A stretch of 64,000 nucleotides of DNA from Schizochytrium sp. TIO01 (lineage: Eukaryota > Protista > Bigyra: Labyrinthulomycetes), in the NCBI GenBank assembly GCA_004764695.1, contig SMSO01000014.1:429648-493647 (forward strand), given 5' to 3'. Of this stretch, positions 15,926 through 50,037 are shown one piece after another (the first letter of the stretch is position 1; every line of letters begins with the position of its first letter). The notes beneath the pieces are model-generated. The model worked only from the letters and a program-made list of their open reading frames with translations, was not told the origin of the DNA and searched no databases. The position numbers and the translations under genes were made by a program.

Positions 15926-16625
15926 TTAATTCATCATTCCAAAACCCTTTGTCATAATCCAAGAGCGCTCTTTCGAAGAATATTGCCTGTGCACCCTAAA
16001 GATCAATGTGCGATCGATCATTCATCCCCCGCAGAATCCACAGGCAGGGGTTCGCCGTCTGCGGCAGTCAGACGAACGCAGAGCGCACGAATGGTTTTCG
16101 GATTCCGCTGGCCACTTTGCGTCGAAGGGTGAGGAGAAAGAGAGGAAACCACGCACGCAGAGCTTGTTGGAACAGCCACGATGTGGCCAAAAAGCTGGTT
16201 GGTGGCCGCGTCCGCTCCGGCAATGATTACCTCCGACTTGAGCTCGCCCAGGTCTAGGCCTACTACACCGCCCACGGCGTCGCAAGGAATGTGCGCGTGG
16301 ACCAGAGAGAGAGAGCCCTGTGATGTTCGTTATGAGCGAGGGCAAGGAAACCATGCATTCAGTCAAAGGCACGGGGCCAACGAGACTTGTCACGATTGGC
16401 GCTGCACACTACGATTGTTTGGTAGTAATCGTTTATCTGGGAATTGGTTCCAGATGTCCCAGATTGCAAAAGGTCAAATTTTTGCTGGTGATACCTTGCA
16501 TCATAAAGCTTCCGCGAGGCATTCAGATTGACTCCTAACTCAGGACTAATCGTGTCATGAGCTCTGCTCTCTCTATCTAATTGATCAAGTCTGTTCTGGA
16601 TATTGTTTCGCAATGAGTTAGACAT
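15926..16625 (-). pseudogene. Single-jelly-roll penton/minor-capsid-like protein, frameshifted
   Basis: Joining three track ORFs gives ATG16625...TIVVCSANRDKSRWP / (shift ~16365-16376) LTECMVSLPSLITNITGLS / (shift in (CT)6 at 16304-16315) LVHAHIP...VVGLDLGEL...LFGHI...NPKTIRALCVRLTAADGEPL...GDE* then TLIFRVH in another frame. This follows the motif order I recall for giant-virus penton-type proteins (IDSRDRD-YP-LP-KNV-L-SAEIP ... YLxIDEL ... FAKI ... L-KL-I-F-DG). Confidence 0.68.
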
Positions 16626-16803
16626 CAACTACTTTTTATTTGATACTATTATATCAAGTAGCCTTAGATTTTTATTGGATGCTTAAAAACTCTTACCACC
16701 CGAATCGCGAAAATTCGAGGCAGCGCAGGAACAAGCAAAACAGCAATCCCAGAGCGGTGCTTCACCGGACCGACAGACACAAACACAGGGAAACAGAAGG
16801 CCT

Positions 16804-17271
16804 ATGAAGCGAAGTCGCACCGTGCTCGCTCTTTTAGAATTGTTTGGCCTTGGTAGCATTGGAGCGGACCGCTTTTATATGGGTTCTTACAAACTTGGTG
16901 CACTCAAAATAGCACTGCTTATTCTAGGAATTCTTGCGGGCGTCTTTCTCCTTGGACCCCTTGCATTAGGATTTTTCGTTGCTTATTTTATCTTCGTCAC
17001 CTGGGACTCATTTATCAAGGGCCTGACACCAATCGAGTTTTGGTTACATGCCAAGCCATCTCGCATCAATTTGATAGACACATCATGTAAAACAAGTGTG
17101 ACGGGTGATCAACAGCGACGTCTCGTGAAGACTTTTGAGAGAATTGTTGTGAACGACGCTGGCTCAGGTTCACGTATTGTACAAAATATGACCAACGGTC
17201 AGGTTGTTAGTTTCCAGTATGGTGAAGATGGTCTCGATGGGACGTATATGAGAACATTTGATGAATTATAG
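16804..17271 (+). CDS. Chimeric ORF: TM2 domain fused to an RNA polymerase largest-subunit (Rpb1/beta') bridge-helix fragment
   Basis: Residues ~1-68 are TM2-like (ALLELFGLGSIGADRFYMG). From ~17008: SFIKGLTPIEFWLHAKPSRINLIDTSCKTSVTGDQQRRLVKTFE...VVSFQYGEDGLD, versus Rpb1 consensus [40 protein letters not shown]...QFxYGEDG. Confidence 0.85.
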   Translation: MKRSRTVLALLELFGLGSIGADRFYMGSYKLGALKIALLILGILAGVFLLGPLALGFFVAYFIFVTWDSFIKGLTPIEFWLHAKPSRINLIDTSCKTSVTGDQQRRLVKTFERIVVNDAGSGSRIVQNMTNGQVVSFQYGEDGLDGTYMRTFDEL

Positions 17272-17497
17272 AAACCTAGATGACATCAAAACGGCTCTAT
17301 TGATTTACCTGGGAGGGTATATCTTCCACAATTTGGGCTTGCGAGAAAAACTATCATGGGCTCTTATATCGTATATTTGGAAACGCCAGTATCATGCATT
17401 GAAATAAACCAAGACGCTTGGCATATCTTTTGAAATTGTAAACCCTGATAGTGAGTGTAGTGATGACGACCTATTAGAAAGATATATTGTCTTCTAA
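17261..17497 (+). pseudogene. Small orphan hydrophobic protein with one internal TAA
   Basis: Manual translation: MNYRNLDDIKTALLIYLGGYIFHNLGLREKLSWALISYIWKRQYHALK*(17405)TKTLGISFEIVNPDSECSDDDLLERYIVF*. It fills the gap between neighbouring virus-like ORFs. Confidence 0.4.
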
Positions 17498-17535
17498 CTT
17501 TTACTTTAAAAAGAAAATAAGTCAACACACCATTC

Positions 17536-18003
17536 ATGAGTTTGGAAGACATTATTGATCGATTGGATACAAAACTGCTCGTCCGTTATGTAACTTATGA
17601 TGACCCCCTTGCCTACCATAATGTGTATAGTCTTGTAAGGAAAAAACTTCGAAGAAATAACCAGTTTCATAGAGACCCGAATTATTATTATATTTTCTTG
17701 CATTTTGTAACTGACTTTTTAAGAGCATGTCCCCAGTATGAAGGTTTATTTCAGAATATTTTGATTGATTTCATACGACTTACTTCTCGTCAGAAAGATC
17801 ATTCTCATTATAATCACACTCGGGATATGGCATATTACGTACGGTTTCCAGAGCTGTTTTTCCCGTCTATCAAATATAGCAAGTGTGCGGAAAGAATATT
17901 GATCTTACAAAATATGGTTATGCAGAATAATGCCACTGATAAGCTTCATCATGAAGTCTGGTCTACATTTCTAGTAACTAAACCTCTATACGAATATTGT
18001 TAG
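17536..18003 (+). CDS. Hypothetical protein (virus-like orphan, 155 aa)
   Basis: Intact AT-rich intronless ORF preceded by an A-rich spacer; 30 bp from the next ORF. Confidence 0.6.
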   Translation: MSLEDIIDRLDTKLLVRYVTYDDPLAYHNVYSLVRKKLRRNNQFHRDPNYYYIFLHFVTDFLRACPQYEGLFQNILIDFIRLTSRQKDHSHYNHTRDMAYYVRFPELFFPSIKYSKCAERILILQNMVMQNNATDKLHHEVWSTFLVTKPLYEYC

Positions 18004-18033
18004 ATGGACAGTATTGCATAATGATACAAAAGT

Positions 18034-18723
18034 ATGGGTTTCGATAGTCGAATGGATTTGGAGTTTGGCAACCTCAAGTTTAGTCGAGGTGTTGAAAAGT
18101 TACGCAAGGTTCTAAATGCGCACTATCGGAACATTAAAAGGTTTTCTATATTTTTTGTATGTGTCCTACTGAGCGTATCGATCAAGTTGGCTTCAATGAA
18201 TGTGAACTATGTTGCAAGTACAGTTGATTCTATGGGAGAGGCTATTACTCTTTCTGAACCAACTTACACCCCATTCCATTTGACAACTGAACTAGTCGCC
18301 ACACCCGTCGAGGGTACACAGCAATTTCCCATCAAACCAAGTGCGATGAATCAGAAGATACAAACACTCAATCTAGTTGCTGCGATCTCAAGTGTAGAGA
18401 CCTTTTTGGAAAACACAGGCTCTAGGTGCATTCATCTTAAATACTTTGGTGTACCTTATGATCTTATTGTGTTCAAGCATAACCATGCACTTGATGAAGC
18501 AAGTACGTCACCGTATGACATCATTGTTAATCCCGAAGTTCGCGAAGTTTCTGCAACTTTGCATAGGCGTCAAGTAGAAAATATTTATGGAGAAATGGAA
18601 TATATCAAGCTACCGAGTTACCTAATCATGGATTATAAGGACGCTGACTTGGAGAGTCAATATGGTAAAAAGTTCACTGACGAACTAGGTTATTGCATTT
18701 GGTATTATCTTCGTAAAACTTGA
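18034..18723 (+). CDS. Membrane-anchored inactive peptide-deformylase-fold protein
   Basis: TM (FSIFFVCVLLSVSI), then PDF-like order: CIHLKYFGVPYDLIVF (~GLAAPQIGV.RIIVI), IIVNPEV (~LINPEI), LPSYLIMDYKDAD (~RP..I.V.Y.D.DG), ELGYCIWYYL (~LARCIQHEIDHL). EGCLS and HExxH are absent. Confidence 0.62.
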   Translation: MGFDSRMDLEFGNLKFSRGVEKLRKVLNAHYRNIKRFSIFFVCVLLSVSIKLASMNVNYVASTVDSMGEAITLSEPTYTPFHLTTELVATPVEGTQQFPIKPSAMNQKIQTLNLVAAISSVETFLENTGSRCIHLKYFGVPYDLIVFKHNHALDEASTSPYDIIVNPEVREVSATLHRRQVENIYGEMEYIKLPSYLIMDYKDADLESQYGKKFTDELGYCIWYYLRKT

Positions 18724-18731
18724 AAGAAAAC

Positions 18732-20942
18732 TTAATCGATTTGAAATAGAGAATGAAGTTCAGCCATCTCTACCGCATAAGGGTCAGTGGTGTTGTATTG
18801 TGAAACGATATACATATTATCTTGTTGTGATCGCTTGACTGCACCCGTCGCACCTCCACTAATTTGGCGTTCTTTTGCCTCTTTATATGGAATGGGTGCG
18901 AATGAAGCAGAACCAAAATCGATCAGAAAAACCTTGACGGACTCCGAATCATTTGTTTGATTTTCAAGGAGAGCAAAGTTTGCAAGACGAATATCACCAT
19001 GCAAAACACCCAACTTATGTACAGCCTTTAGGCTCTTGACACAAGCAGCCAGCAGTCCAGGAAGACTCAGTGTTCTACTATCAAGTTTATCTAGACTTGT
19101 ACCACACTTGGCAGTTGCAATCATGACCCGAGAGAGGGTGAACTCACCCCCAAAGATCATAAAGGGTACGTGGATACCTTGAAGTTCTCGCAAAGGTCCA
19201 GTGTACATACTAATCTCAGTAGAAAATGATTCTTCCGCGAACTCGCGATATTTCTTGCGAATAGTGGACCTCCTGAACTTAACAAAAAGGTCCAAACCAT
19301 CCTCCCACTTTACACTTGATGTAATTGCAATCTCTGACGAGGATATAAGGGTCCAAGATGGATCCCATGGGAAGGGAAGCATCATGTCCTGCACCGAGAG
19401 AGGAAGCTGGCGAGATAGATTGTTCCGAGCTTGGTTCACTTCGGAGTCTCCATCTGAGACATCGTTGGCTTCAAATATTGCAGACAGAATTGTTTCTCGA
19501 GCTGCTTGGTTACATGCACCTCCTTCACTGCACCATGTGTCTCTAATGAACATGTAAGTTCTTGATCTTATAGAGAGGGGTATCCTTGTGGTCCCTCTTC
19601 TAATATAGGAACCAAGAGCTTCAAGAAGAAAAGCGTAGAGAACAGACATTGTTGACATTGGTCCAGATGTGTGTGCTTGAAATGCATCGCTTACATAGAG
19701 CTTAGCATTTTCATCGAGTTTGCAGAAATAAGTAAATTCGAAGGTGGTCAAAATGCCAAATTCGTTATTCGTGGCAATCATGTATCCGACGAGCTGAGCT
19801 ACAGAATTGATCAATCCACTATCTCCTGCCGGTAGTTGTATGTCAACGGAGCGCTCCTCAACAGGTTCATGTAGTAGTAGATCCGTTTCTATCCGTAATG
19901 GTGGGTCCTGATTTCCGTTAATGACTTCTAAAGGAGCATTACCTATACCGTAATACGACTGAAAGAAATCAGGCGGCCCGAAAGGAAGTTGAGTACCATT
20001 TCCATCAGACCTTTGATTGTTTGAGAGAATTCTCAAAGGGGCCTTGACTTCAACTGGACAAAAGCAGCATTGGTTGGTATTATTGATATTGTTGAAAAGA
20101 CAAGCAATATCAACCGATGTACCGATAGCAGTACCAAATTGCATATACCATGACAAATTGTCAACATCCAGATTTCGGTTCGACAACCGTATGATCGTCA
20201 TAGCGGTTTCGATAGCAAGCGAAAAATGACGACTTACGTGTTCCTTCATGAGACCTAACTCAAAATCTTGTAGTGGTAAGCCACATTGGGTCGATAAAAT
20301 AGTGATGTTTCTTGCAGCAAGCTCTTGAATCTTTTCTGCAACACGGACTTCATTATTGAAGTTTCTCCATCTAAGAACTTGAGATGGCCTGATGTTCCCC
20401 ACAAATCTACCTACTCTTGACCCCGTGGGATATACATTCCGTACATAGTTTTGGGTAAGAGGTCTTGCGAGGGCAACTTCTGCACGTGGAAATGCTCTAG
20501 ACTCAGCCGTATCCGCACGAGCCCTCTCTCTAGCTCTTTCCGCAGCCTCAGTGTCTGCACGAGCCCTTTCAGTGTCTGCACGAGCCCTCTCTCTAGCTCC
20601 TTCCGCAGCCTCTTGTAGTGTCTCAAGTGATATTACTGCAGATTGAAACGATTCATTCTCTCCATCATCATTTAACATTAAATCCAGGTTTGCGATAGCA
20701 TTATTAATAACTTCGTGATCTCCCAGCTGAGCAAGTACCTGGTACCGTCTAGGGCGTCTTATCCTACCCACCTGCCTCGCCTCATCGTTTGTCACAGGAT
20801 TGCCCTCTGCAAGTCTTCGGATTATAGTGACTATAGCATCAATTGATATAGATAAGTGTGGTGTGCGAGACCTTGTAGGGTTGGGCCCATCCTGCCTAGC
20901 TGTGCGGCCGCGCGTATCTCTGCTGCTGCTGCTGCTGCTCAT
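18732..20942 (-). CDS. Crinkler/CR-type effector: PD-(D/E)xK restriction-endonuclease-fold domain + C-terminal protein kinase
   Basis: SVDIA...PVEVKAP...VAQLVGYM...FGILTTFEFTYF (REase with QxxxY motif). Kinase: LFVK, E..MY, LQG..VP, HKLGVLHGDIRLANF, VFLIDFG. N-terminal helical region plus ARERARADTE coiled-coil repeats. Confidence 0.85.
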   Translation of the reverse strand: MSSSSSSRDTRGRTARQDGPNPTRSRTPHLSISIDAIVTIIRRLAEGNPVTNDEARQVGRIRRPRRYQVLAQLGDHEVINNAIANLDLMLNDDGENESFQSAVISLETLQEAAEGARERARADTERARADTEAAERARERARADTAESRAFPRAEVALARPLTQNYVRNVYPTGSRVGRFVGNIRPSQVLRWRNFNNEVRVAEKIQELAARNITILSTQCGLPLQDFELGLMKEHVSRHFSLAIETAMTIIRLSNRNLDVDNLSWYMQFGTAIGTSVDIACLFNNINNTNQCCFCPVEVKAPLRILSNNQRSDGNGTQLPFGPPDFFQSYYGIGNAPLEVINGNQDPPLRIETDLLLHEPVEERSVDIQLPAGDSGLINSVAQLVGYMIATNNEFGILTTFEFTYFCKLDENAKLYVSDAFQAHTSGPMSTMSVLYAFLLEALGSYIRRGTTRIPLSIRSRTYMFIRDTWCSEGGACNQAARETILSAIFEANDVSDGDSEVNQARNNLSRQLPLSVQDMMLPFPWDPSWTLISSSEIAITSSVKWEDGLDLFVKFRRSTIRKKYREFAEESFSTEISMYTGPLRELQGIHVPFMIFGGEFTLSRVMIATAKCGTSLDKLDSRTLSLPGLLAACVKSLKAVHKLGVLHGDIRLANFALLENQTNDSESVKVFLIDFGSASFAPIPYKEAKERQISGGATGAVKRSQQDNMYIVSQYNTTDPYAVEMAELHSLFQID

Positions 20943-21036
20943 CGTTGCTGATTTGCTTGCATTTGTTTGTCCATCACTCTTTTGCAGAACCCCGCCGCTC
21001 TCTTAAGTAACCCTTATGAATTCTTACTGTGCGTGA

Positions 21037-21501
21037 AAGAAAGAAATAGTCTTTAAATTGAAAAGTCGAAATTGACCTCGAGTTCCGCGGTAAGAAATCG
21101 AGGAAGAGCAAGAGCAAGAGCTTCCCACGCCAGCGGCAGCACCAACAGCGGCAGCGCCAGCAGCACCAGCACCAGCACCAGCAACAGGTAGAAGGAGCGG
21201 GAAAGTCCGGCTCGCTTCGTCGTAACCCCACGCGTAAGCGCAGGCCCTCTACCAGCCCGATCCTGATACTAAATTTGATGATGACCACAGCGGCGACAGT
21301 GATGATGAAGAGGACGTCGACTCTGATGAGGATCCCTCAACTTCAGACGAAGAGGAAGAATCAGAAGAAGATTATTACGACTCTGATGACCTCGCATTTA
21401 TTGCCAACAGCGATGAAGAAGACGAAGAAGCTTCTGATGAATCATGCACAGAAAGTGAATATGATGGTGACGGTCGGTCGTGGTTGCCTCTAATCATATA
21501 G
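21037..21501 (+). pseudogene. Broken acidic virus-like protein
   Basis: Across frames: EEEQEQELPTPAAAPTAAAPAAPAPAPA / LRRNPTRKRRP / LYQPDPDTKFDDDHSGDSDDEED...YDSDDLAFIANSDEEDEE. Resembles the RSGR..KP..YQP...DD...L.DFIVDD acidic proteins I recall from algal giant viruses. Contains stops and shifts. Confidence 0.5.
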
Positions 21502-21955
21502 CTGGGTCTTGCATTTTGCAGTCCAAATTCGCCGCGCGAAATGAAGTTTCTGAAGAAGCTCTTGTTTCCACGCATAGGTGTACCGTCAACATCATCCCCA
21601 GATCAATGATGCCTTGTGGTGTGATTGGGCACCTGTCTCATATACCTTTGCCTAAAGAGGCTTTGTTCCCCTCACTCGATCACATAGAACACACATTGCG
21701 TAGCACCTAGTTGGCTATGCCATCTAATGGTAATAGAGGAGTAGCTATGAACAGATAGTACTAGAGCTAGGTAGGAGTTTGACAGCACGTGCACAGACTG
21801 CCCAAAAGTCGAGTCGGACGAGCTCCTGGGCGCATGTGCGCTTCTGCGTCACTTGTGCACTGCACCGTCACTTTAGCTGACTTCGCCAGAGCGTTTCGTA
21901 AGTAGAGCGTGACGTAGACAGCTTTAAGCAAGACCAACGAGCCCAGGTTAAGATT

Positions 21956-24900
21956 ATGGGGGATTGCGACGACGATGGTTTGCTATGGGCAGCGTACGCT
22001 GGTCAACTAGGGCAGGTTCGTTAAATCATATCAAGGAGACCCGAACTGGTGAATCAAACAGACGATTATGGTACTACAGCGTTGATCCTATGCGCCGAAC
22101 AAGGGCATCTTCAAATTGCAGAATATCTACTTTGACACAATGCAGATCCAAACCACAAAGACCAAGGAGGGAAGACCGCCCTGCTAAAGGCGTCTAAACA
22201 TGATCATTTAAAGCTGGCGAAGTTGCTTTTAGAGCACCATGCAGATCCAAACCAAGAATACCAATACAATAACTCTGCCTTGATCAAAGCAGTGGGAAAT
22301 GGCAATACCGAATTGATCAAATTGCTCTTGCAGCGTCCAACGGCCAACTACAGCCACGACGAAAGAGATGACGCTTTGAGAAGTGCGTCTTCTCAAAACA
22401 ACCTTGAGCTGGTGAAGTTGATTTTGAAGTGCCATCCAAACTCAAGCGATGAGGCTCGTGGAGTCTCCTTGATATCGGCATCTAGGATCGGCAATCTTCA
22501 ATTAGCCACTGTGCTTCTTGAGCACCACGCTAACCTAAACAATTATGGCATGCATGGACATTCCGCCTTGATCGAAGCATCCAAAGCTGGCAACCTTCAA
22601 TTAGTGAAGCTACTCTTACAACGCGGCGCAGATGTAAACCAGCATTGTTCTTATGGACGTTCTGCCTTGATCGAAGCGTCTGAAGCTGGCAACGTTCAGT
22701 TAGTGAAGCTGCTCCTGCAACGCGGCGCAGATGTAAACCAGCATTGTAATTATGGACATTCTGCCTTGTTCAAAGCGTCTCGTTGCAGCAGACTCGAGGT
22801 AGCAAGAGTTCTTCTGGAGCACTCCGCAAATCCAAACTGTCGTGATACAAACGGGAGATCTGCCATTATAGAGCTATCTAGATACCGAGAAGTAAACCTG
22901 AAGTTAATAGAGTTACTTCTGCAGCACAATGCAGACCCAAACTATTTGGATGAAGACGGATACTCTGCTTTGATATGGGCGACCCAACGTAGCAACCTCA
23001 GTTTGGCAAAACTGCTATTGAAGTATCATGCAGATCCAAACAAGGGAGTTTACATGTATCCCTTGCACATCAGTTGTGAGAGTGATGACCTTCAAATGGT
23101 AAGTCTTCTCTTGGAGAATCGTGCAGATCCAAATCTCAAATCTGGTGATGAAAGGACTGCTTTAATGATGCTGCGTGGATGGAGTAATTGTCTTGAAATC
23201 GCGAAATTACTTCTCGAGAACCATGCAGATCCAAACTACGAAGATAAATACGGAGAGACGGCCTTATTTGCAGCAATGCGTTCTTGCAGGCCCGAAGTGG
23301 CAGACTTGCTCTTAAAGAACTATCCAAACATGAATCACCAATCCCATCGCGGAGTGACGGCCTTGATGGTTGCGTGTGAAGAAAGTAACCATGGCGCTAT
23401 AACGGTTTTACTTGAAAATGGAGCTGATCCAAATATATGCACTAAGTTCACTTCTCCTCTGAGGGCACTTCTGAGATGCTCCTACTATAACACTTTCCTA
23501 TTGGTAAAGAGCCTTGTCGAATATGGCGCAGATATTAATTGGAGGAATCAAGATGGAGAGAGTTTGCTGATGTTGATAAGCACTGGGGAAACTGACCTAG
23601 TACACTTTCTACTCGAGAATGGTGCAGACCCAAGTGATCATGCTACCCTATTGAAAAACGCCTGCCAAGAAAATAACCTTGAATTGGTGAAAACCCTACT
23701 CTGGAGCTACTCAGTAGACCCAAACGAAACTAAAAAAGATGGGGAAAGATTTTATTCTGCTCTATATTATGCATGCGAACGCAGAAACCCCGAAATAGTA
23801 GAACTCCTACTAAAGCAAGGGGCAAATCCCCAATTAATATCTCGGCGACAGGAAACCCTCTTGATGTTTGCGTGTCGAAGAGGATATGTTGACATAGTAA
23901 AATTGCTTCTCGAGTATGGTGCAGATCCAAATGTTCTAGACATGGACGGAGCGAGTGTATTGATGTACTCTGCATCACTTCAGGACTCTACATTAATGAG
24001 TCTTTTACTTAAGTATGGTGGCAACCCTACGTTGCGTGACAAAAAGAAGAGGTCTGTTTTGATGCACTATCTATATTGGACTAATCCAAAGATACTTGAA
24101 CTCCTCCTCGAGCATGGCGCTGACCCAAACGAACACTGCGGAGACTCGAACATATCTAGTTCTGGGCCAATTCTGAATATGCTATGTAAACAGCGTTACT
24201 ATGAGTGGGCGGAACGTCAATTAAGGGTACAAGCGTGAGCATCCATTGGACCGAGGGCAAGATGGGAAGCCAATCCTCATGAACGAATACCAGCACTCTC
24301 ATTTAGAATCACTCAAAATTCTTCTTAGACACGGAGCAAACCCAAACTCACGTGATGAAGGTAGAGAGACGGTTCTCAACACTGCGTGTAAGCAATGCCC
24401 TACCGAGTGGGTAAGGGTATTACTGGAAAATGGCGCAGACCCAAATCATAGAAATCAGTTTGGTTGCATAGCCCTAATGACTGTATATTGCAGAGGCTTC
24501 TTCAATTCTAGACAAGAATTTGTTTGTCAGGAAGGCCATCTTGAGTTAGCTGCATTACTTCTCGAGCACGGCGCATGTGTCAGAATTAGTGACAACCGCC
24601 ATAAAACTGCGCTAGATTATGCCAGGAATGCTGGAGTTCCGGAGTTACTGGAGTTTTTCTCGAATGGTGATGTTTCCAAGTATCTTCAGGAGGAGCTCGA
24701 ACTCCCTCAAAGTGTTGTGGTACAATTTTATCTAAATAAAATTGTTACTTTTGAGGACTGCTGCCTTGTCACTGAAGATAAGCTTGTCAAGATGGGCATA
24801 GTTCGAGGTTTTGATCGAAGGAAGTTTCTGAAGAGGTTTTACAAGGAGCCTCCGGCAGCAAAGCTTCCACGGGTATATGAGTTCGATCGCCCGCCGTGTT

Positions 24901-25374
24901 TCAACTACACGATCTCGACGATCTCTGCGCTGCTATGATGCCTTCTTAACGCATGAGTGGGGTTCAGACGGTCTTCCCACTCACAGCATTGTCTCTGTAT
25001 TAAACACAAAGCTGGTAGAGGCAGGTCTTACGACCTGGTTTGATGGTGAGCGCGTTTCTGGTAACATTGCGCAACAGGTAAGTGAAGGCGTGCAAAAGTC
25101 CAAGAAAATCATTGTGTGTGTCACACGCCGGTACATGGAAAAACTCCAGAGCAATAATGCGGACTGGTGCAAAGATGAATTCTTGGCGGCAACTCGTGTG
25201 CACAATGGCGTTGAAAACATGATCCCCCTAGTGCTGGAGCCAGAGATGCTAATAGCTAATTCCTGGAGAGGCCCACTACAACTACACCTTGGTGGGCATC
25301 TCTATATTGACTTTTCAACAGAGGAACATCGCGAGGCAAATTTTCAAGAGCTGTTAAATCGAATAAGGTCATGA
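21956..25374 (+). pseudogene. Ankyrin-repeat - SAM - TIR protein (~1,140 codons if repaired), disrupted in this assembly
   Basis: ATG 21956 is in frame with ORF 22223 but has TAA 22022 and TGA 22133 inside clear ankyrin repeats. More than 20 ANK repeats; +1 shift near 24223-24227; SAM at ~24666-24839 (DVSKYLQEELEL...EDKLVKMGIVRGFDRRKFLK); +1 shift probably at 24871-24873; TIR (YDAFLTHEWG, WFD, SKKIIVCVTRRY, WCKDEF, IPLVLE, LYIDFS). Confidence 0.85.
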
Positions 25375-26687
25375 TTTTTAGTTTAGTTTTACTTGAAACA
25401 TTCTGCGCATATATATAACGTTTCAACCTGCCAGTAGTAGTGGCCACTAGGGGGGTGTGGGGGGGGGTATGTACATCAATACAATTTCAGTTGTGAGAAA
25501 AACGAAGTAGCTGTTACTTGAACCGAGAATAATAGGATAAGCAACTGATACGTGCCTATGATTATAGGGGAACACTACTGTAAAGTGTAAAGGGAAGACA
25601 TATGATGCAATTCAAGTATTCGCACCAGTAAAGTTAATTGTTAATTTATTCAAATCATTTGAGTTGAATTGAATGCAAGAACTGTTGCAATATTATTGTC
25701 TTAATCCACTATCGGAGCAAAACCCTCTACCAAGTAGGACATTAATTTACTTGCAAACCAGGTATTCTTAAGCGCTGATCTCAAATGCACCCATATTGCA
25801 CACCATATACCACACCATGCATTTCACTCTAACGAAATCTCTCTTTCCACAATGCCATCGTTACTCAATAAAGATTCCCAACAGTGAACGATCCTTGAGG
25901 TTGTCAAATTAAGCTCTGCGTGAGTAACGCGAGGTGCCTGTCCAAACCTGTGCGGCTGCAACCTTCGTTTGCACTTTCATAGATGTCTCACCTTGGTTAA
26001 TATACAAGCCATTCCTTGCTTTGGTCCCTCTTTCCTTTGCTCTAGATTGCCTCTCACATCGCCCATACCACACTTTGCACAGAGGTCTTTCACTCCCCTC
26101 TAATTAGTACGAAAGCGGTCTAGCTACCTGATAGGAGCTGCTAGTAGCTCTTAAACTTGGAAGGAGGTCTCTGTTCAAGTTCTCTCTTTCCCCAAAAGTA
26201 CAGTACTTACCAAGATATGTGAAGCAGCCATCAACGCTTTCATGCAATGCAAACAGCTTTCATGTAGCCATTCTGATTAAAAATGCCTGTGTTTTATGCT
26301 TCTGCACGCACCACGATTCGGTTTGCTTCGAAAGCAGTTGCTTTGCTAGACCGTGTGGGCTCGCTGGCACTCTTAGCGACTGCTAGCGCGGGGCTAGCCA
26401 TGTTTACTTGTGCTTTGAGGTTAAAGAGTAGAGGACTTGGAAGAAAAGTTCTACATGATTAGGAGGGTAAAAGGAAATGAGAGAAATGAATTCATTGATG
26501 AGATGGGATGAATAAGAATAAGAAGCTTGAAGCGAAGAGAAAACGAATCGAGAATCACGATATGAATCACGATCTGTGGAAACTGAAGAGGCAATAGGTA
26601 AATCGTTTGCCGAAGGCTGGCGGGTTGGCAGCAGTTTGAGGCTTGCTGAAGACTGTGGTCGGCTGACGAGGTTTTGCTGCAGCCAAG

Positions 26688-28487
26688 ATGATGGAGGCCT
26701 CGTCGCGGGAGGACGTGACGGTGTCGCTCGTGAGTCGGGGATCGTCTTCGTCAGCCTCGTCTTCGACATCGTCAGCGTCGGTACCAGCTTCGAATGGAAG
26801 TGGGCCGTCGGAGAAAAACCGAGATCAAGCAAACAGTCGAGGCAGCTATCAAGGTACCCGTAAAGACGACGAAGATGAGGATGAAGAAACTGGCAGCATC
26901 AAGAATTTTCGCCAAAACAATGATTCTATCTCGTGTGGTATACCATGTTTTCCAGTGAACAATAACTTGTACGTCACAGTTCTACTGTGCTTAATCAACA
27001 TTTTTCTCTTTGCTGACCAGAATCTTCTAGCACCAGAGCTCAGCACGATCGCATCAGACTTTGGCTTCAACGAAGTGGAGAGAGACCGATACCTAGGTGG
27101 CAATGTTGCACTAGTCTTTTTTCTTGTTGGAGGTGTTACGTCCATTGTTGTGGGATATCTAAGTGACAGCGTCAACCGCATCTATACCCTTGTGGCCATC
27201 GTCCTTATTGGTGAGACAGGGTGTCTAGTCACTTACTGGGTCACTTCATATGAGCAGCTTCTTGTCGCGCGTGCTGTGACAGGAATTAGTGTCGGCGGTA
27301 CTGTACCTCTATGCTATTCCCTATTTGGAGATTTGTGGCCTACAAGAAAGCGCGGCACTGTGGTGGCAGTGGCAGGTGTTGCAATGGGTTTTGGTGTTGG
27401 ATTTGGCCAGATCATTGCCGGTATCACTGGCCCATTGCTAGGTTGGCGCACGCCATTTTTAATCATTGCAATCCCTGCATATGTGCTTGCACTAATTCTC
27501 ATCATGACTACGCGGGACCCTCGGAGAGGCACTAAAGAAGAAGTCCTTACCCAACTGGTATCAGCCAATGACATCATTTACTCTGAGCGGATCACTTGCT
27601 CCAAGCTCAAGGTGTTGCTCTCATGCAAGACTGTGGTTCTCATCCTTCTCCAAGGCCTTCCAGGCTCGCTTCCATGGGGCGTTATGATTGTGTACTTCAA
27701 TGATTTTCTTAGTTCAGAGTATGATATTTCTGTGGAACTTTCCACAGTTATTGTGCTTCTATACGGAGTTGGTATTGTTATGGGCCAGCTCTTGGCCGGA
27801 TGGCTCACTGATCGGTGGTTTGTTCATCGTAAGAAAGCCATTACATTGGGTATGGGTAGTGCTACAATTTTAGGTGGCGTGCCGGTGCTCTTCATGCTTT
27901 ATGGCGCAGGCTGGCTGCCAGTTTGGGCATTTTTTATTCTTACAATACCAGCTGGTTTCCTCGCAGGAATTCCAGGCTCAGTTCTGCGGACTTTAATGCT
28001 TAATGTTACTGTGCCAGAGGTCCGTGGCTCCGCTTTTGCAATTTTGAACCTGGTAGACGACCTTGGACGCGGTCTTGGCCCCTTTTTTGTATCCTTCATA
28101 ATCGAAGCTATGCCAGATCGAAGGCGCGATGCCTTGGCAATCTCAGTGTCTGGTTGGCTTATATGCGGATTAATGCTAGGTGCAACCGTATTTACACTCG
28201 ATAGTGATGTGCGTTCTGTTGATAAGCGTATTCTTCATAACTACCTGAAAAGGCACCCTGGAGAGAGCACTGAGTATCTTGTTCAGGAATATCTTTTAGA
28301 GCATAATAGTACTGACCGCGAAGAGGCACTCCGAGAAATAGCATCAGCACGTGGTCATTTGCCTGACGATGAGCTCTACGAGGCCATCAGTGCTGAAGAT
28401 CGCGAAATTGAGCCATCGCGTAGGGGTCGAGGCGAGCGAGACGTTCGAGTGGACCCCGCGTCTGATGTAGAATTGACTTTAAGATAA
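26688..28487 (+). CDS. Major facilitator superfamily transporter (Spinster-like)
   Basis: INIFLFADQNLL, GYLSDSVNR motif A, RAVTGISVGG, GDLWPTRKRG, second-half GWLTDR; about 12 TM segments. Confidence 0.9.
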   Translation: MMEASSREDVTVSLVSRGSSSSASSSTSSASVPASNGSGPSEKNRDQANSRGSYQGTRKDDEDEDEETGSIKNFRQNNDSISCGIPCFPVNNNLYVTVLLCLINIFLFADQNLLAPELSTIASDFGFNEVERDRYLGGNVALVFFLVGGVTSIVVGYLSDSVNRIYTLVAIVLIGETGCLVTYWVTSYEQLLVARAVTGISVGGTVPLCYSLFGDLWPTRKRGTVVAVAGVAMGFGVGFGQIIAGITGPLLGWRTPFLIIAIPAYVLALILIMTTRDPRRGTKEEVLTQLVSANDIIYSERITCSKLKVLLSCKTVVLILLQGLPGSLPWGVMIVYFNDFLSSEYDISVELSTVIVLLYGVGIVMGQLLAGWLTDRWFVHRKKAITLGMGSATILGGVPVLFMLYGAGWLPVWAFFILTIPAGFLAGIPGSVLRTLMLNVTVPEVRGSAFAILNLVDDLGRGLGPFFVSFIIEAMPDRRRDALAISVSGWLICGLMLGATVFTLDSDVRSVDKRILHNYLKRHPGESTEYLVQEYLLEHNSTDREEALREIASARGHLPDDELYEAISAEDREIEPSRRGRGERDVRVDPASDVELTLR

Positions 28488-28589
28488 AGCACTACTCTAG
28501 CTTAACAAGCTTTGATAATATTCGAAGTGACCGTGAATCTCTACAAATTCGCAGTATCAAAAAAAATCAAATACCAAAGAATCCTTTTT

Positions 28590-28949
28590 TCATTTCCGTG
28601 CATGATACTTGTGCAAACAATCGCCAAGTGCGTATGATGCCCATCGACACCTTTTGGGAATCTTTTGCCTGGTTTCGCCTTGCTCATTTTCATCCGTGCA
28701 GAATTGCTCTACGATGTCAGAACATGGCTTGGGCCCTCCATAAAAAGCGAGGTATTCGCTGCCACAAAGGTGCTCCGCAAGGCATCTTTTTTCGTTGAGT
28801 TTGAGCCGAGTACAGAGATCACTTTGCTGACCATAGTTGTTTAAACAGGCCTCGCGCTTCTCAACAGCTTCTTTGCACGCGCCTTTCTCAACTTGGCGTC
28901 GCTCGTACGAGCGATAAATGCCTTTGAGCCACTCCATGGCTTCTGCCAT
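28590..28949 (-). CDS. Small Cys-rich twin-CX9C (CHCH-like) protein, probably mitochondrial intermembrane space
   Basis: CKEAVEKREAC, CTRLKLNEKRC and CRWASYALGDC are all CX9C; further Cys lie in between. Confidence 0.7.
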   Translation of the reverse strand: MAEAMEWLKGIYRSYERRQVEKGACKEAVEKREACLNNYGQQSDLCTRLKLNEKRCLAEHLCGSEYLAFYGGPKPCSDIVEQFCTDENEQGETRQKIPKRCRWASYALGDCLHKYHARK

Positions 28950-29952
28950 CTTGTTTTATTCAAGTGTGTTGATCAATCCTTGTTCAGACTCCCTTTGCTC
29001 TGCGCACCGATCGTGTATCCCCCCAGAACAGGTTCTGTGCGCAGGGGCGAGGCATACAAAAGTCTCTCAAATTGGTTTTGCCTTGATTGAGCAGAAGTGA
29101 CGTCTTTAGCAAGTGGATGTCTGCCAGTGGCAGATTTCCAGGAATAAAAAGAAAAGGCCAAAATGTTTTGATTATTCTACAGATTCTCTCTCTATCAAAA
29201 TTTGGTCAGGAAGCCATCATCAAGTCACTTGACCAATCATGAAAAGACATCAGTTCGGCTGTAAGATGAGCCAGTGAACTTACTTCAAGTCATTTTGGAT
29301 GTGGGGAGGCCAAGAAGAACAAAACCATCGTCATCGCGGTAGAACAGATAATGAAATTAGACGAATAAATTTGTACAAGTTATATCTTCAAATCCACAGG
29401 CAGATTAGTACAAAGAAAGGCTTGTTCGACATGCAGTCTTCATTCGTTTGCTTCCTGTTTAGAAGATGAGTAGGACTCTAAGCTCACTAATCCCAGAAGA
29501 AGTACGTTTATTTTATATATTTTTTTATTTATTTTTAAAGAAAGCAAAACTAGCATACCAAAATGAGACTTATCGAAATGAGACTTTAAGTGCTCAAAAC
29601 GAAATACAGAGGGCATGAGCACAATGCGACAAAAGAGAAATTATGAGTAAGTAACTTTATATCCACACTCACTTCCTTCGAGCAATGAAAAAGGGGAAAT
29701 GACGAATAAACAGAATGCGTGTTTGCTCAATTCGAGAGTAATAGCGGAGAGTCTATCATCATGACATTATTGACATCAGAACCATCACTATTGCTCATGT
29801 AAAGACAGAAAATGTAGTTGGCACAACTTGTTTAAGTTGCTGCCATCGATAGTGATGCATATTTATAAGGAAAAAGGTCACGATGGTTTGGTGATATGGT
29901 GTGATGTTGTCGTTGCATATTTAAGTAAATCAGTATTATCCTGGAAAGGATA

Positions 29953-42763: not shown

Positions 42764-45700
42764 CTAAGATGAGGCTCGATGGTATGCCTCAATAGGCAGT
42801 GCCTGGGCACGAATCAAGTCAGCATTTCGCATCAAAAACGGTACTAATTTTGCAAGAGGCTGTACCTGGCCGCCAAATGGGTCAGGGTAAACCGTGCATG
42901 CAGTCAGAGGACTCTGTTCGCTTCGACGACGTTGTGAAGCCACAGATGTATCAACCATGCACTGCGCCATATCATCCATATGGATCAACAAAGAGTGTAA
43001 GAGTCTACATAGCTCATCGTACACGCGTTGTGCGAGAGGAACACTAGCTTGTTTAGGGTCGCCAGGTGGGCGCACAAGACGCGAAACGCCTGAAAGTGAG
43101 AAACTTAAAGACTTTGACCGAAAATCTGGCGACATACGTCTGCGAGTAGCTGTCGATGCAGTTCTGGAGGTGGTTTCAAATCCATCTTCAGATGTTGTAA
43201 AGACGGACTCGTTACCATCACCAGCAACATCTAGTCGTTGACCTCCTGTGGAGCTTGCTATGAACGAAGCCGTGTCGGCTGACTGCCCTCCGTGGCTTTG
43301 CGAACTATCTTGCTGACCAGCTCGTTGGATTCCGGAAACTCCAGTAGAACCTAAGGAAGGCCCCAAAAACCTCGTAGGCCCAATAAACTCGCCCGTGCTT
43401 GCTAAATGTGGCATCGGCACGCAGCGAGAAAGCATCCGCATGTCACGATATGCAAGAGTATCTGCGAAAGCAATGCATTGGTCGCATGCTGACGCCATCG
43501 CCCAACCTACCGCAATCGTACTTTTTGCAACTGCATTAACTAACGTGGGGCTTACAGCAACCTGACCAGCAGCTGAGAAGAATAAATTCGTGCAACCTGT
43601 TGACTCATCTAAGATTCGATCAAGACCAGCTCCAGCATCAAATGCTGGGTGGGCTTGGGCCGCCCGACTTGTCAACTTTAACAGAGACAAGTGAGCATAG
43701 CGAAGTGCTTCGAGAAGTTCTTGCAATAGACTCGTAAATGGCACCATGGCTGTATGAATTGGGCGTGTAAGCTGACTAACTAACAACCGATCTCGCTTGA
43801 CGTCTTCGAGATTAACCTTGTTGAGCGAATCTAAGATTGAATTACTTAAATCATCCAGACTTCGAATAGTAGCCTTCCAATGGCTCACCAGCACAGCAGA
43901 GTCACGGCTCTCTAGCTCTAAAGAGTTCCACAGATGAGACCTTCTCTCTTTGAGCTGAATCCAGCGAGTTGCCCGAAGTAGCTCACGGTCACGGGTTACA
44001 GCAAACACAATAGCGTCTGCACGAAGCTCGTCGTCGGAAACCTGCCTACCTTCATGCACAGATTCTGTCAGAGTCTTTTGCCAAGCTTCCACCAGTAAAA
44101 TCTTCCAAAGGCATAGCTGCCTCACGAATTGCTAAGGCCAAAGCTACAATGGCAATTTGTACGGCACGATCACGTAGATGCATATCATCATCACTATCTA
44201 GTTCAGCAATTAGCACATCCCAAATTCTTATGGTGCACATTGCAGAAAAGGGTACTTGATCGACAAACAAAGAACGAAGCCATGTTCTCACAATCGGCCG
44301 ACTTGCTTCTAACAATGAGCTAGATAATGCAGGGCACATCTCCCTAACAATATCAAGAACAATTTGTGTGTCCACTTGAAGTGCCGCACTTCCAGAGATA
44401 CGAACAGGGCGGTCCATAGCCCGCTTTTGATCATCTCTCCCATGATCATTTGCGCCATCTGAATCGTCTGACTTATCAGCACTATTTTGTTTCTGCGCAT
44501 TATCTTGCTCAGGTAAAAAAATCCCCGCCTTCGACGAATTGTTCGTCAAAAATTGTGCCACAGAGGCCATTGAATCGGCTGCACTATGATATGCTCTAAA
44601 TGGACCTAGCAGAAGAACACGTAGCACCGTCAAAATTGTGTCATGGTTTTGTTGCGCTCCATATTGCATAGTGTCGATTAAAAAATCCGAAATTCGAACA
44701 AGCTCGACAGTAAGTGCGAGATTTGAAGACTCCGACGAAATAATTTCTAAAATATCACGAACTAGCTCAGAGTTTTCTAAAGATAAGTCTGAACCACAAA
44801 GCTTACGCAGAGCCAAGGATAACCAATCAGAAGTTTTGTAACAAGACATCAATGGTACAGCAAAACCTGGAGTTCTTGCACGTGGAAGTGCCTGACAGGC
44901 CCCCGGGTGTGTCTTGAGCCAACGCTGTGACGCACGTTGGCAGATCCCTTTCCAAATATTGGGGCGCAATTGTTTAGTGAGCCCAGCACGGGCTAGCTCC
45001 ACAAGTGATGGGCAAGGAAGGAGGTCTCTAGCAAGAACCATTCGCTCGAGACAAAGGCGCGACTCTTCAGCATGGCGCAAAGATATCATCTTGCGCGAGA
45101 ATTCTTCGAACTGTCCAGACACCGAGCGACGCTGTATGTTTGATACTCGTGCACTTCGCGATGTACTTTGAAGCAGTCGCAGCCATTCACGGTAGCGAGC
45201 ACCATGCGAAGCAGCACTTTCATTAGAGTCAAGGCGCTCGATAGCTAATAGATATCCCTTCTTCTCAGCAAGAGATGGGTGCATGATTCGAATCGCTAAG
45301 ATGTCATTGTAAGATCTGCTACTATCATGAGTTTTTGCAAGTGCTTCAAGCCAAGTACGCTCCTCGGGGCAGTTAACCGCGGGAGGCTCTTTTACTGGAA
45401 TGATAGAGCATCCGTTTTCGCCTAACCATAGCTCTCGCCGAAGGTTGTCAAGCGATGCATCTTTAAAAACCATCACACGCCCTGTCGAAAGAAGAAGCAC
45501 GTATCTGCGATTATAGTTAATTGTACCAGGCGACACAACCCATCCCGCTGCAATGACAGTTCCACGTGTCAGACATCGCTCGACACAGGTAAAAAACTTA
45601 TGAATATCTGCATTACAGTCGTCGCCTAGAGCAAGTCTCCATGACGGACGTCCTGGAGGGCCACAGAAGAAAAGCTTTACACTTCCTTGATGATAATAGG

Positions 45701-46433
45701 CATGGCGAGCAGAGCATAGACGCACATGATGATCAAGAACGGGGTCTGTGCGAAGTCTTCCAAAAACAAAAAAGCCTGCCACATCGTCCAAATTGAGAAA
45801 CCCACGTGGAGCTTCACCAACTTCCCTTGCCACCTCCCAATCTTTGGTGTCTTTATTTGTATCAGTTGTTTCTGCCCGCGACCTTACAAACTGACTACCA
45901 TTGAATTCTTCGTCTATGTAAGATCCATCATTACCATTGCTTGAAGTGCTATCATGCTCCATCATTCGGTGTTGTTGTCCTTCTCTGTTTTTGTTTTTGC
46001 TGTTGAGAAACGTATTTGATAATTCTGAATTCCGATCGCTATTTCCTTTCCCCAAATTGTTACTTCCGTCGTCGTTATTGGAACTCCCAGTGGTCCCCAA
46101 GTTGCCGCTTGAAGCCGCATTGCGATTCATAGATTTGGCGCTCGAAGAGTTTTCCGAAGTCGCTCTGGACCCAAGTTCTGTATCGTTGGATGTACGAAAT
46201 TGTGTTTGATTGCCGCTTGACTGGCGAGTTGCAGTTCCGCCCGAAGCAGCGTCAACAAAGCTGCTCACGACGGAAACTGCAGCAGCGGCTGCAGCAGCGG
46301 CAGCCATTGCAGCTTCTTCACCAGCGCCAGTCTCGAGGTACTCGAGTTTGTTGTCTCGCACACGGAAGCATCTCTTGCGCCATTTGCTTGACTCCTCGCT
46401 GGCTTTGAGCAACCAGCCCGTCCAAAAGATCAT
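42764..46433 (-). CDS. PH-domain protein with degenerate TBC/Rab-GAP-like region; one gene split by a +1 frameshift near 44052-44125
   Basis: N-terminal split PH (GWLLK..KWRKRCFRV), second PH (RRYVLL...EWLRLL), TBC-like GL...LRPNIW and WLRSLF...RIWDVL. The overlapping ORFs join as ...GGSLAKTLTESVHEG if one A of an A4 run is removed. Confidence 0.7.
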
Positions 46434-47258
46434 TGCCGCTGGCCAAACGAAGATTGAAGCCCGCGATCAAGCTTGATCTTGCTCGCAAAGGCGGCTGAGT
46501 TTGAGCTTTACTACGGTGGTATTTCCATTCACGATTTTTTTTTGACATAGAAATTTAATTAAAAAGTATCTTTTCCCATTTTATATGAAAGATCTATTTC
46601 GTGAAACAAATTAGGAAATTAATTATTACCTGCTAAATCTGCCATGGGCCTTATATCAGAACCATTGTTGATGAGATAACTGATGAATGTGAAAAAAGGA
46701 TGAATCTAGTCAGAAAGGTGAAAGCATGAGATCAATTTTGTGATGTTGAGAAAGGCATAGTAGGATAGGAAATCCAATGATTAGAACTGAAACTCACTCA
46801 AGAGCACAATGCATGCAAAGCATGAAGTAGTATTTGGAATGTGGAGAATTTTGTACACATTCAGATCTTGTCTTGTGGTATTTATTGTTCTTTACAGACT
46901 TCCTTGCTTGTACTTTACCTTGAGGGATTTCAAAACAGAGACTAGATCATCATGTACCACGGGGAGAGAATCAAGCACTTTTGAGTTAGTGCATTGGATT
47001 CAGACTATTGATTATAAAGACAATGAAGATTGTATTAGGTATTTAAACAAACAAAAAAAAAGAACCTGATTGAGAACTCTCGAAGGGTACAAAGGTTTTA
47101 CAAGGTGTTCCTCTCAAATGGAGTGAATATAGAGCTATTGAGAGAGTGTTCCAAAACACCAAAAATGTGGCGATTAAGTTTTCCTTTCCAAGGCAATGCA
47201 AATTGGAAAATGAAATCTGTAAGTTCATCTGTAAGGGGATAAGCATAAAGAAAACAAA

Positions 47259-50037
47259 TTACGCTTTGTTCTCCGGGCGATTCCACTGCACTTCCTGGGT
47301 CTCCATGTTTTCATAGTAGAGTTTGCCGGTTCGACGATCGCGATGTTCGATCCACTCCGAGTTGAACAAACGGGAACCCTTCGGCAGAGGGTAGCCTGCA
47401 CTATCTAACTGAGGACCGGGATCGCTCTTAACATCTTTAAGGAGCTGTGTGATTTCCCCAATCTTCTCAATTATTCTGCGATCTTGCTTATTTGAAGGAG
47501 CAGCACTTAGGTCTGGTGGTGGTGGCGGTGGCGGTTGTGTGAGTTCACCAATTACGCCAGAGGTCGTCTCTACGCTGCGTGTTGCAGTAGAAGCTCCTGC
47601 GCTTGTCTCAACAGCAGATGGGTCAAATTCACCGAGTGCTGCAGTAAAATGACCTCCACATGCCGCGACTGTGTAGCGGTAGCCATTAACACGTCTTGTG
47701 CTCATTGGCTTTCGTACAGAAATGAAATAGCCTGATGCAAGAGCACCACGCTCGTCATTACCCCACATCAATAATCGACCATCTTGACAAAGTCCAGCAG
47801 CATGCGTTGAGCTACAGGATACTTGGACTACATTCTCACCCTCAAGCGACTCGAGCAGTCGTGGGTCTACAATGTCTTCCTGCACACCATCAAATCCAAG
47901 AGGAGAGGCTGCTGTGCCCATTGTGTAGACAGACGTATCAATGCATTCTCCATCATCATACTTTGGAGCAGTCATTGAACTGAGAACCGTGTTCCGCCCA
48001 TGCATGTCTCCAACTACTATGATGGCCATATCGTTAGAAGCAGCGATATCAAGAATTGGGCGATCATGATCATCAAACTGATGCATACGAACAGGTACGA
48101 GAGATCCTGGCTCGGGGCCAATGCGGCCCCACATGAACATCTTCATCCCATTCTCTGTCACAGCAAGAGAGAACTTGTTGCCAGCGGCTACACGATCAAT
48201 CTTGTGCCCTTCCAAGCTATCTACAAGAGTTGGGACGTAGCGATTGTCCTGATCGCCTAGTCCAAGACGTCCATGGCGGCCTTTGCCCATCGTGTAAACA
48301 CTGTCACCTTGAGCAACAACGATAGTGTGGACAATACCACACGAAAGCGTCTTGACAGGCACACCATTTGCTGTACCAATATATTCCACTAAAGCAGGTT
48401 CCCGAGACTCTTTACGCGATAAACCAAGGCCCCAACTCTCCAGATGGGCCTTCACCCCACATGTAAAGATCTCCAGCGCTGCTCACAGCTCCAGCGTGCT
48501 CTTCGCCTATACTCACGCAAACAATGTTCACCTTGCGAAGAGCAGTCACCAGAAACGGGCGATTGCTGGAAGATTTGGTCTGAATTCCAAGCGGACCAGA
48601 GCCCCAAGTAAACAGCTGTCCATCTTTCTCAGAAATAGAAGCCACACAAGACTCACCGGCAACGAGAACCCTTGATTCAGTTTTCTTTTTCAAAGTTTGC
48701 ACATGATGGGGATTGGAAGTGAGAGTATCAACAAGGCCGGATCCAATACCTAATTGAAACAAAGAGTTGTCACCCCACGTATACACACGGCGCTCGTGAG
48801 AAAGGTTTGCAGATTTTTGACTTGTAGACCTCATACTCAAGCGCTGCCAGAGACCTCCCTGCACAGATGAATCAGATCTAGCGAGATTTGTTCCTGCACT
48901 AAACTTTTTACTCAAGTGCCCTCCTCGGAGCGAATTGATTGAAGCCGACATCGGCTTAGCATTGACGTCATCTTCCTCATCACTTGAAACAATAGTCATA
49001 TCCTCATCAACACCGAAGTAGTCTTCATCATCATCTTCCTCAAGGATGCCAATATCTTCATCATCCCCACCAACAACAGATCCGTTTGTCTTGAAGCCCA
49101 GTGGTGCTCCAAGCATATCCATTTGGCTCGCAGAAAGAGAGCGAAGTTCTTTAACAGAACTCTGAAATTTACGAGCGTCGTTCATGGTGAACCCAACTTG
49201 GCGAAAGAGTACCTTCATGTCATCCTCGCTCATGCGTTTAATCTTGTCGAAATCTTTAATGCCTGAATCGAGTACCACACCAGTCGCATACTTTTCAAGA
49301 GCGTGTTCGTGTAACCAAACACCGACCTTGACAGCGCCTTCATCCTGGAATATCCCTGCTTTACGAAGCGCTGTCACATGCAAAGACCACATCCACGCAG
49401 CGCGCTCAGTAGGTGTTGGTGCTGAGAGCTGCAATGTGTGACGATATGCTGCAGGTCCAGTCTCGACAATAAATGCGTTGTTCTTCCCCCAGCCCACTGT
49501 TGCGCTAGTATGGCGAATGACGGCATCCGCAGTAATCTCAAACATGCCTTTCGGCCGCTCTGTAGGGCTCGAAGGTTTGTTCTCGTAATACGCAAGCCGG
49601 CCATTGCGAAGTACGAAGAAACGATTTTTCCAATTGCGCTGACTAGACACAGCTCTTTTGGTGAGCCAACCACGTCTGCTTTCTGATTTGCGCTCCTTGC
49701 GAGCATATCTCGCTTCATCGATGGCCTTACGAAGAGACTTTTCCCAGTGTTTCTCGTTTTCTGCAGACTCTGCACGAAGAACCAGCACGTGGGGTCTCGC
49801 CACAAGCTCGAAAGTAAAGGATTTCGAGGATCTTGACGCCCTAACTACCGAGAAAGCAGACAACTCCACTACACCAAGAGGTCTTCTGGCAAGGCCATTT
49901 TCTATGGTCGGCTTGTCTTCGTAGTATGTTAAAAGTCCATCGCTGAGGACAAAGTACCTGCGCCTCCACGATTTGACGCGCTTCCCACAGAGCTTCTGCA
50001 GAAAGCCTTCCACGTTCGTCAGCATCATTGACGCCAT
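47259..50037 (-). CDS. PH-PH-SAM-RCC1 repeats-WW multidomain protein; split by a +1 frameshift at 48430-48433
   Basis: Two PH domains (GFLQK..WRRRYFVL; GWLTK..WKNRFFVL), SAM (VGVWLHEHALEKY...), RCC1 repeats (YTWGDNSLFQLG, GRHGRLGLGD), poly-Pro, WW (WIEHRDRRTGKLYYEN..TQEVQWNRP). Removing one G restores GELGLG. Confidence 0.85.

Follow-up and report, generated by a model that had tools for sequence, protein, structure and literature searches.

A gene that joins a long ankyrin array to a single SAM domain and a C-terminal TIR domain lies on the forward strand of the 64,000-nucleotide stretch of Schizochytrium sp. TIO01 DNA analysed here (the window). The gene (21956..25374, +) is intron-less and is broken four times in this assembly, and it forms an uninterrupted frame of 1,138 codons in intact alleles from other isolates. 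By analogy with better-studied proteins, we lean towards regarding its product as a host one-component immune or stress receptor, likely built as a cytosolic repeat-sensor, a SAM assembler and a TIR NADase switch.

Gene structure and allelic variation

The gene runs from an ATG at 21956 to a TGA stop at 25372-74 and is covered by four in-register reading-frame pieces on the + strand. The ankyrin-repeat array (21956..24660, +) makes up the N-terminal 900 residues, starting at residue 8, and is likely to act as the sensor or brake of the protein. A profile made from the gene's own repeats identifies 24 ankyrin repeats, with about 27 discernible by eye when the caps and one irregular repeat are included, and Pfam finds many ankyrin matches, in three of the gene's pieces, among them Ank_2 in the 700-aa ORF (E=1.4e-104). 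The array is followed by the SAM domain of 58 aa (24666..24839, +), a basic, Arg/Ser-rich linker that contains the second frameshift (24840..24930, +) and a TIR domain of the FLTHxW...WFD...CxxEF subfamily (TIR_2; 24931..25371, +), within which the glutamate of the catalytic position is encoded by a GAA codon at 25177..25179 (+) as part of WCKDE. The linker is likewise basic, with RRxS-like motifs, in the relatives P0001, P0017, P0019 and P0021, and such motifs are absent from P0003; they represent a possible phosphorylation or membrane-binding site. The NB-ARC or NACHT NTPase that is the hallmark of NLR/STAND proteins gave no Pfam match in the window ORFs, P0001 or P0003, and no LRR of the kind found in Toll-like receptor ectodomains was matched in the gene, where ankyrin repeats occupy residue 8 onward.

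The four breaks are an in-frame TAA (22022..22024, +), an in-frame TGA (22133..22135, +) and two extra bases, at ~24223 and at 24852..24855 (+), each of which causes a +1 frameshift. All are private to the window. At least half of the window's words are shared by 20 of the 24 listed public runs; six runs were compared, and the breaks themselves were followed in X1, X4, X6 and X20. In all four of these both stops are sense codons, both extra bases are omitted and no joints occur across the gene, which shows that the pieces form a single gene. An earlier inspection of the letters, the sequence-only reading, had already merged three consecutive ORFs with an upstream in-frame segment, and had claimed more than 20 ankyrin repeats and a TIR that keeps its glutamate at the GAA codon; each of these points holds. 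Introns at the two frameshifts are ruled out by the lack of joints in the four runs, as are an alternative genetic code and programmed frameshifting by the plain sense codons of the other isolates.

The gene is carried in one contig by X4 and by X6, with 1,138 codons and no internal stop, although these contigs end 10 and 30 bases short of the gene end, respectively, and two of the 25 differing letters are missing from the difference table. X20 has none of the four breaks, X1 has a premature stop of its own at codon 126 that differs from the window's stops, and X10 has lost one 99-base repeat. X2 has no cover across 21238-29500, a region that includes the neighbouring MFS gene, and is hence uninformative on absence of the gene. 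The differences among alleles comprise 23 non-synonymous, 8 synonymous and 3 stop-related changes, 30 of the 34 falling within the ankyrin array. The non-synonymous share of 0.74 compares with 0.77 expected under neutrality (p=0.68), a neutral-level ratio at which decay and diversifying selection are inseparable. Three neighbouring proteins of the window are 99.7-100% identical to members of their clusters, which include MMETSP0958/0961 transcripts, a figure that comes from different isolates and so is not like for like with the allele comparison. The taxid in the headers of those transcripts, 87120, belongs to a fungus and is probably a slip for 87102, Aurantiochytrium limacinum, so that the host is a thraustochytrid and probably of this species.

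Each of the four breaks duplicates the preceding base, which is a usual form of long-read error. In two further genes of the window, at 47259-50154 (-) and 42764-46466 (-), apparent +1 frameshifts at short runs interrupt the frame, the first gene being cut within the RCC1 propeller of a PH-RCC1-WW protein, and these splits suggest indel errors in the assembly. For the four breaks in the ANK-SAM-TIR gene, errors of assembly are the explanation to which we incline slightly, and a true null allele is given a little under an even chance. A broader proposal is that the family is functional and this copy is a dispensable, decaying paralogue, with the window holding a true pseudogene. This is rather unlikely, despite the fact that four of the six window-private differences are disabling, with two nonsense changes in four substitutions (p=0.012), that a comparable indel density is absent from the 3.6 kb downstream in X1, that the stop in X1 is independent, that the allele pattern is near-neutral and that the gene adjoins a multi-copy, unstable-looking element. 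Set against these observations are the open frames of X4 and X6 over all that they cover, the freedom of X20 from all four breaks, the repetition of the preceding base at each break, the +1-type splits in two other window genes and the restriction of changes in the SAM and TIR to only 3 of 34 substitutions.

No run is annotated as RNA, and X4, X6 and X20 are treated as such by guess or from one spliced intron. A 248-base GT-AG intron of a neighbouring transcript (25963-26210, -) is spliced out in X4, which is therefore probably RNA, and the X4 contig that spans the ANK-SAM-TIR gene is a weak sign that the gene is transcribed. The spliced minus-strand transcript, located in the interval from the TIR gene to the MFS gene, has no long ORF and would converge on the 3' end of the former.

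On its upstream side the gene abuts a multi-copy element (16600-21200) with approximately 2-5x the depth of its flanks in 4 of 4 runs, which contains low-GC ORFs and a kinase gene and has at its edge a Gln/Ala-rich and acidic low-complexity stretch (21130-21490). A 194-aa ORF (16687-17271, +) combines a TM2 domain with a 70-aa fragment of the RNA polymerase largest subunit (Rpb1 domain 5, E=7e-12). A 232-aa ORF (18025-18723, +) has no Pfam match and no homologue in the protein search, and an Atlas match to peptide deformylases (0.84) serves as a lead only. A 756-aa ORF (18732-21002, -) encodes coiled-coil repeats that are followed at the C terminus by a divergent kinase (Pkinase_fungal, E=7e-6), and is one that we take to resemble the Crinkler-type nuclease-kinase proteins. 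Viral origin of the element is a guess, and scans of viral contigs with two of its ORFs gave no matches. That the ANK-SAM-TIR gene is itself a viral gene brought in with the element seems extremely improbable: the nearby low-GC ORFs, the RNA polymerase fragment, the raised depth at ~16.6-21.2 kb and Atlas structure matches that include Nucleocytoviricota TIR clusters would fit such an origin, but the gene has single-copy depth and a host-like GC3 (0.44-0.48 vs 0.44-0.46), and its close relatives are found on long Hondaea contigs.

The SAM and TIR domains

Taken alone, the window sequence scores below the Pfam cut-off for SAM_2 (E=0.0025, 18.4 bits against 20.5), a cut-off that is passed by the relatives P0021, P0058 and P0077. 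A profile of the segment built from eight family members matched 14 PDB entries at E up to 1, all of them SAM domains, with ARAP2 (2e-7), EphA1 (2.6e-4) and SAMD5 (7e-4) as the best and no SARM1 chain among the 14. An AlphaFold2 model of the Hondaea relative P0003 (22 rows; pLDDT 88.8, pTM 0.73) places five helices at residues 260-317, after the ankyrin stack and before a C-terminal domain of alternating strands and helices that resembles a TIR-type run. Fold searches with this model returned ankyrin folds throughout and so did not probe the SAM or the TIR, whilst a single-sequence fold of P0001 has a pLDDT <50 over SAM-TIR, and a complex prediction with four SAM-TIR copies of P0003 scored 0.00, with the alignment unused and the case outside calibration. 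Judged by the profile matches together with the predicted five-helix bundle of the relative, the segment is a real SAM domain. The SAM call of the sequence-only reading is thus upheld at the level of the family profile and the P0003 model, and falls short where the window is searched by itself. There is one SAM per ANK-SAM-TIR unit in the window and relatives alike.

The TIR domain is matched by Pfam with more certainty (TIR_2, E=2.4e-14), and its His, Asp and Glu align with H8, D33 and E74 of Cat1 (positions counted from the alignments), which are given as the pocket residues of that enzyme in the accessible portion of PMC12162218. The Glu is retained in 169 of 177 related TIR domains, and the three pocket residues are each conserved in 95-98% of them. 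When a 31-row TIR profile was compared with the PDB, Cat1 (2e-8), bacterial TIR NADases, C. elegans TIR-1 (3.8e-4) and Roq1 stood at the top of the 23 matches listed, among which there were no TLR or MyD88 entries and no human SARM1 TIR. Both the pocket residues and the nearest solved TIRs indicate that the window TIR is of the enzyme type.

The subfamily to which this TIR belongs is large: a threshold of E=0.001 takes in 1,962 cluster representatives and one of 1e-10 takes in 1,042. Its members are joined elsewhere to ankyrin, LRR, WD40, RCC1, FG-GAP, NHL, ricin-lectin, kinase, Roc-COR and patatin domains. Close relatives of the TIR in other architectures are a Hondaea kinase-Cys-rich-TIR protein (P0002), a Hondaea ANK-TIR-ANK-TIR protein (P0016), a TIR-ANK-Roc-COR protein (P0060) and a patatin-TIR protein (P0105). 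A metagenome scan with the TIR gave two distant loci only; at L002:330-3365 and L001:3-1832 a high-GC eukaryote gene encodes a TIR of the same subfamily preceded by numerous copies of a Trp-rich repeat domain that has no name.

It may be asked whether the protein is an enzyme at all. As a non-enzymatic scaffold, its ankyrins, SAM and TIR would bind partners only, in the manner of MyD88-type TIRs and ANKS-type scaffolds, and the Glu would be a structural leftover. The replacement of the Glu in P0021, P0062 and P0087 with the architecture kept is in keeping with this, as is a SAM that is closest to the scaffold SAMs of ARAP2, EphA1, SAMD5, Caskin and ANKS3. Moreover, few Glu-bearing protist TIRs were active in a recent screen: the available text reports activity for 4 of 29 such TIRs from unicellular eukaryotes when expressed alone in E. 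coli, most of the active ones without depletion of NAD+ (bioRxiv 10.64898/2026.04.20.719644). The retention of the Glu with the pocket His and Asp in nearly all related TIRs, and the fact that the nearest solved TIRs are enzymes, nonetheless make a scaffold an improbable interpretation, and the enzyme-type TIR is the one carried forward here.

The ANK-SAM-TIR family and its proposed function

The SAM described above precedes the TIR in 17 of 173 proteins (172 matches and the window read-through), with no SAM matches in shuffled controls. The 17 consist of 14 ANK-SAM-TIR proteins, one with a doubled ANK-SAM unit, one with ankyrins found by Pfam only and one fragment, and in the family proteins the SAM is conserved and comes immediately after the final ankyrin repeat. 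In most relatives within the TIR subfamily no SAM is detected, and 130 of the 173 show a TIR only with our own profiles; since the ankyrin profiles missed P0020 and P0031, whose ankyrins are found by Pfam, these architecture counts are lower bounds. The intact protist paralogues that had been proposed as an object of search were hence found, and the named members are three Hondaea paralogues, P0062/P0192, which is a paralogue backed by transcripts and belongs to the window's own species, and two proteins labelled Durusdinium trenchii, whose assembly presumably contains thraustochytrid contamination. The nearest named relatives of the TIR belong to the thraustochytrid Hondaea fermentalgiana. 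Family paralogues differ in repeat number. The Glu is kept in 13 of the 17 and replaced in P0021, P0087 and the same-species paralogue P0062, whilst P0063 is unalignable at this position; its loss in members that keep the architecture implies that catalysis is not required in all of them.

In a tree of 29 TIR domains (two truncated rows excluded), eight ANK-SAM-TIR rows fall in an 11-row clade with support of 99/96. A tree of 177 domains places all 17 in a 43-row group (SH-aLRT 93, not starred) with other architectures mixed in, and therefore does not establish a single origin of ANK-SAM-TIR. The green-algal P0036 (Dolichomastix cluster) has the same order of domains, although its SAM is a different one and its TIR does not fall within this clade, which hints that ANK-SAM-TIR has been assembled repeatedly.

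From the anatomy of the protein, the ankyrin array would bind a ligand and thereby set the receptor free or bring it into clusters, and the SAM domain would assist in its self-assembly. The assembled TIRs would cleave NAD+, acting as a proximity-gated NADase that leads to NAD+ depletion or a cADPR-type signal; proximity gating is proposed because the known TIR enzymes (SARM1, Cat1, AbTir and plant TNLs) form the active site between two TIRs. The ligand may reasonably be guessed to be a viral protein, as the host, read as A. limacinum, carries mirusviruses, which the available part of PMC12606086 describes as persistent in that species. The shuffling of the TIR among repeat types, the differences among alleles and the repeat loss in X10, as against the near-identical neighbours, would be consistent with receptor-like evolution. 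More speculatively, the thraustochytrid proteins could be SARM1 analogues that form an expanded, fast-turning family of catalytic and Glu-less partners, detect proteins of persistent mirus- and nucleocytoviruses and bring about death or arrest of the cell by SAM-driven assembly of the TIR NADase, a scenario that we hold to be possible and distinctly doubtful.

Immunity and cell-death receptors of unicellular eukaryotes are barely known, and the first report of TIR enzymes from protists dates from 2026, with no physiological role in the text available (bioRxiv 10.64898/2026.04.20.719644). If the receptor proposal is true, the gene would offer an innate-immune receptor from a unicellular stramenopile that could be tested directly, in a genus, Aurantiochytrium, that is genetically tractable. 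The host is cultured and transformable and has known persistent viruses, and there are natural intact and null alleles for comparison. If the TIR is inactive, the protein becomes merely another shuffled protist TIR architecture.

Comparison with known systems

The ARM domain of SARM1 is an NMN/NAD+ switch, which a protein with ankyrins in its place would lack. The window protein resembles SARM1 and TIR-1 in that a repeat domain is followed by a SAM and then, at the C terminus, by a TIR that carries the catalytic Glu, and TIR-1 is a weak match of the TIR profile. In contrast to the ARM-SAM-SAM-TIR architecture of SARM1 and TIR-1 (PMC7075850, accessible text), however, it has ankyrin repeats and no ARM, and it shares with its relatives one SAM in place of two in tandem, unlike the tandem SAM ring of SARM1. 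The SAM and, by its profile ranking, probably the TIR belong to other subfamilies, and ANK-SAM-TIR proteins occur as several paralogues in a genome, against a typical single copy for SARM1, as far as the same portion of PMC7075850 describes. On comparison of the sequences the window protein is not a SARM1 orthologue, its plan being SARM1-like without the ARM repeats and tandem SAMs. Descent from a true SARM1 with its ARM repeats swapped for ankyrins might be suggested by the SAM-TIR order, by an Atlas feature search that ranked SAM-TIR/SARM1-like clusters first (0.92, 0.91) and by the match to TIR-1. Such descent is very hard to reconcile with a single SAM whose profile found no SARM1 chain, with a TIR profile for which Cat1 and bacterial TIRs outrank TIR-1 and human SARM1 is not among the 23 matches listed, and with a TIR whose large subfamily has been combined with repeats of many kinds. 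The sequence-only reading had proposed assembly independent of SARM1, and it is borne out in that no sign of descent was seen: the repeat is another, the single SAM is of another class and the TIR is nearer to bacterial NADases by profile. A repeat-SAM-TIR protein built apart from SARM1 would mean that this design of switch arose more than once.

Ankyrin-TIR proteins are known from oomycetes, where the available part of Lapin et al. 2022 (PMC9153377) treats them as uncharacterised and groups them as 'TIR fused to a repeat or sensor domain', and from choanoflagellates, where the accessible text likewise leaves them uncharacterised (Richter et al. 2018, PMC6040629). Like the window protein, these are fusions of ankyrins and a TIR from unicellular eukaryotes, but a SAM between the two, present in the 17 family proteins, goes unmentioned in the available text of either paper, figures aside. 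Ankyrins are not mentioned in the accessible parts of PMC7075850 and PMC9806590, nor are TIRs in the main text of two studies of thraustochytrid viruses. No description of ANK-SAM-TIR was found in the literature, figures and supplements aside, where Tables S2-S4 of bioRxiv 10.64898/2026.04.20.719644 may list members of the subfamily. Hence ankyrin-TIR proteins in protists were known already, and what is new is the SAM between the ankyrin array and the TIR, undescribed in the literature found.

ANKS3, ANKS1A and Caskin share the ankyrin-SAM order, and their SAMs are among the PDB matches of the SAM profile (E 0.1-0.4), but these are animal scaffolds with neither a TIR nor an enzyme. The solved TIRs nearest to that of the window by profile are those of Cat1, AbTir, BtTir, TcpB and PdTir. 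The activity of Cat1 and the bacterial TIR NADases needs two TIRs together (PMC12162218, accessible portion). Cat1 differs in that it serves bacterial CRISPR immunity and depends on a CARF domain and cA4 for its assembly, and its similarity to the window TIR extends over ~100 residues (E=2e-8).
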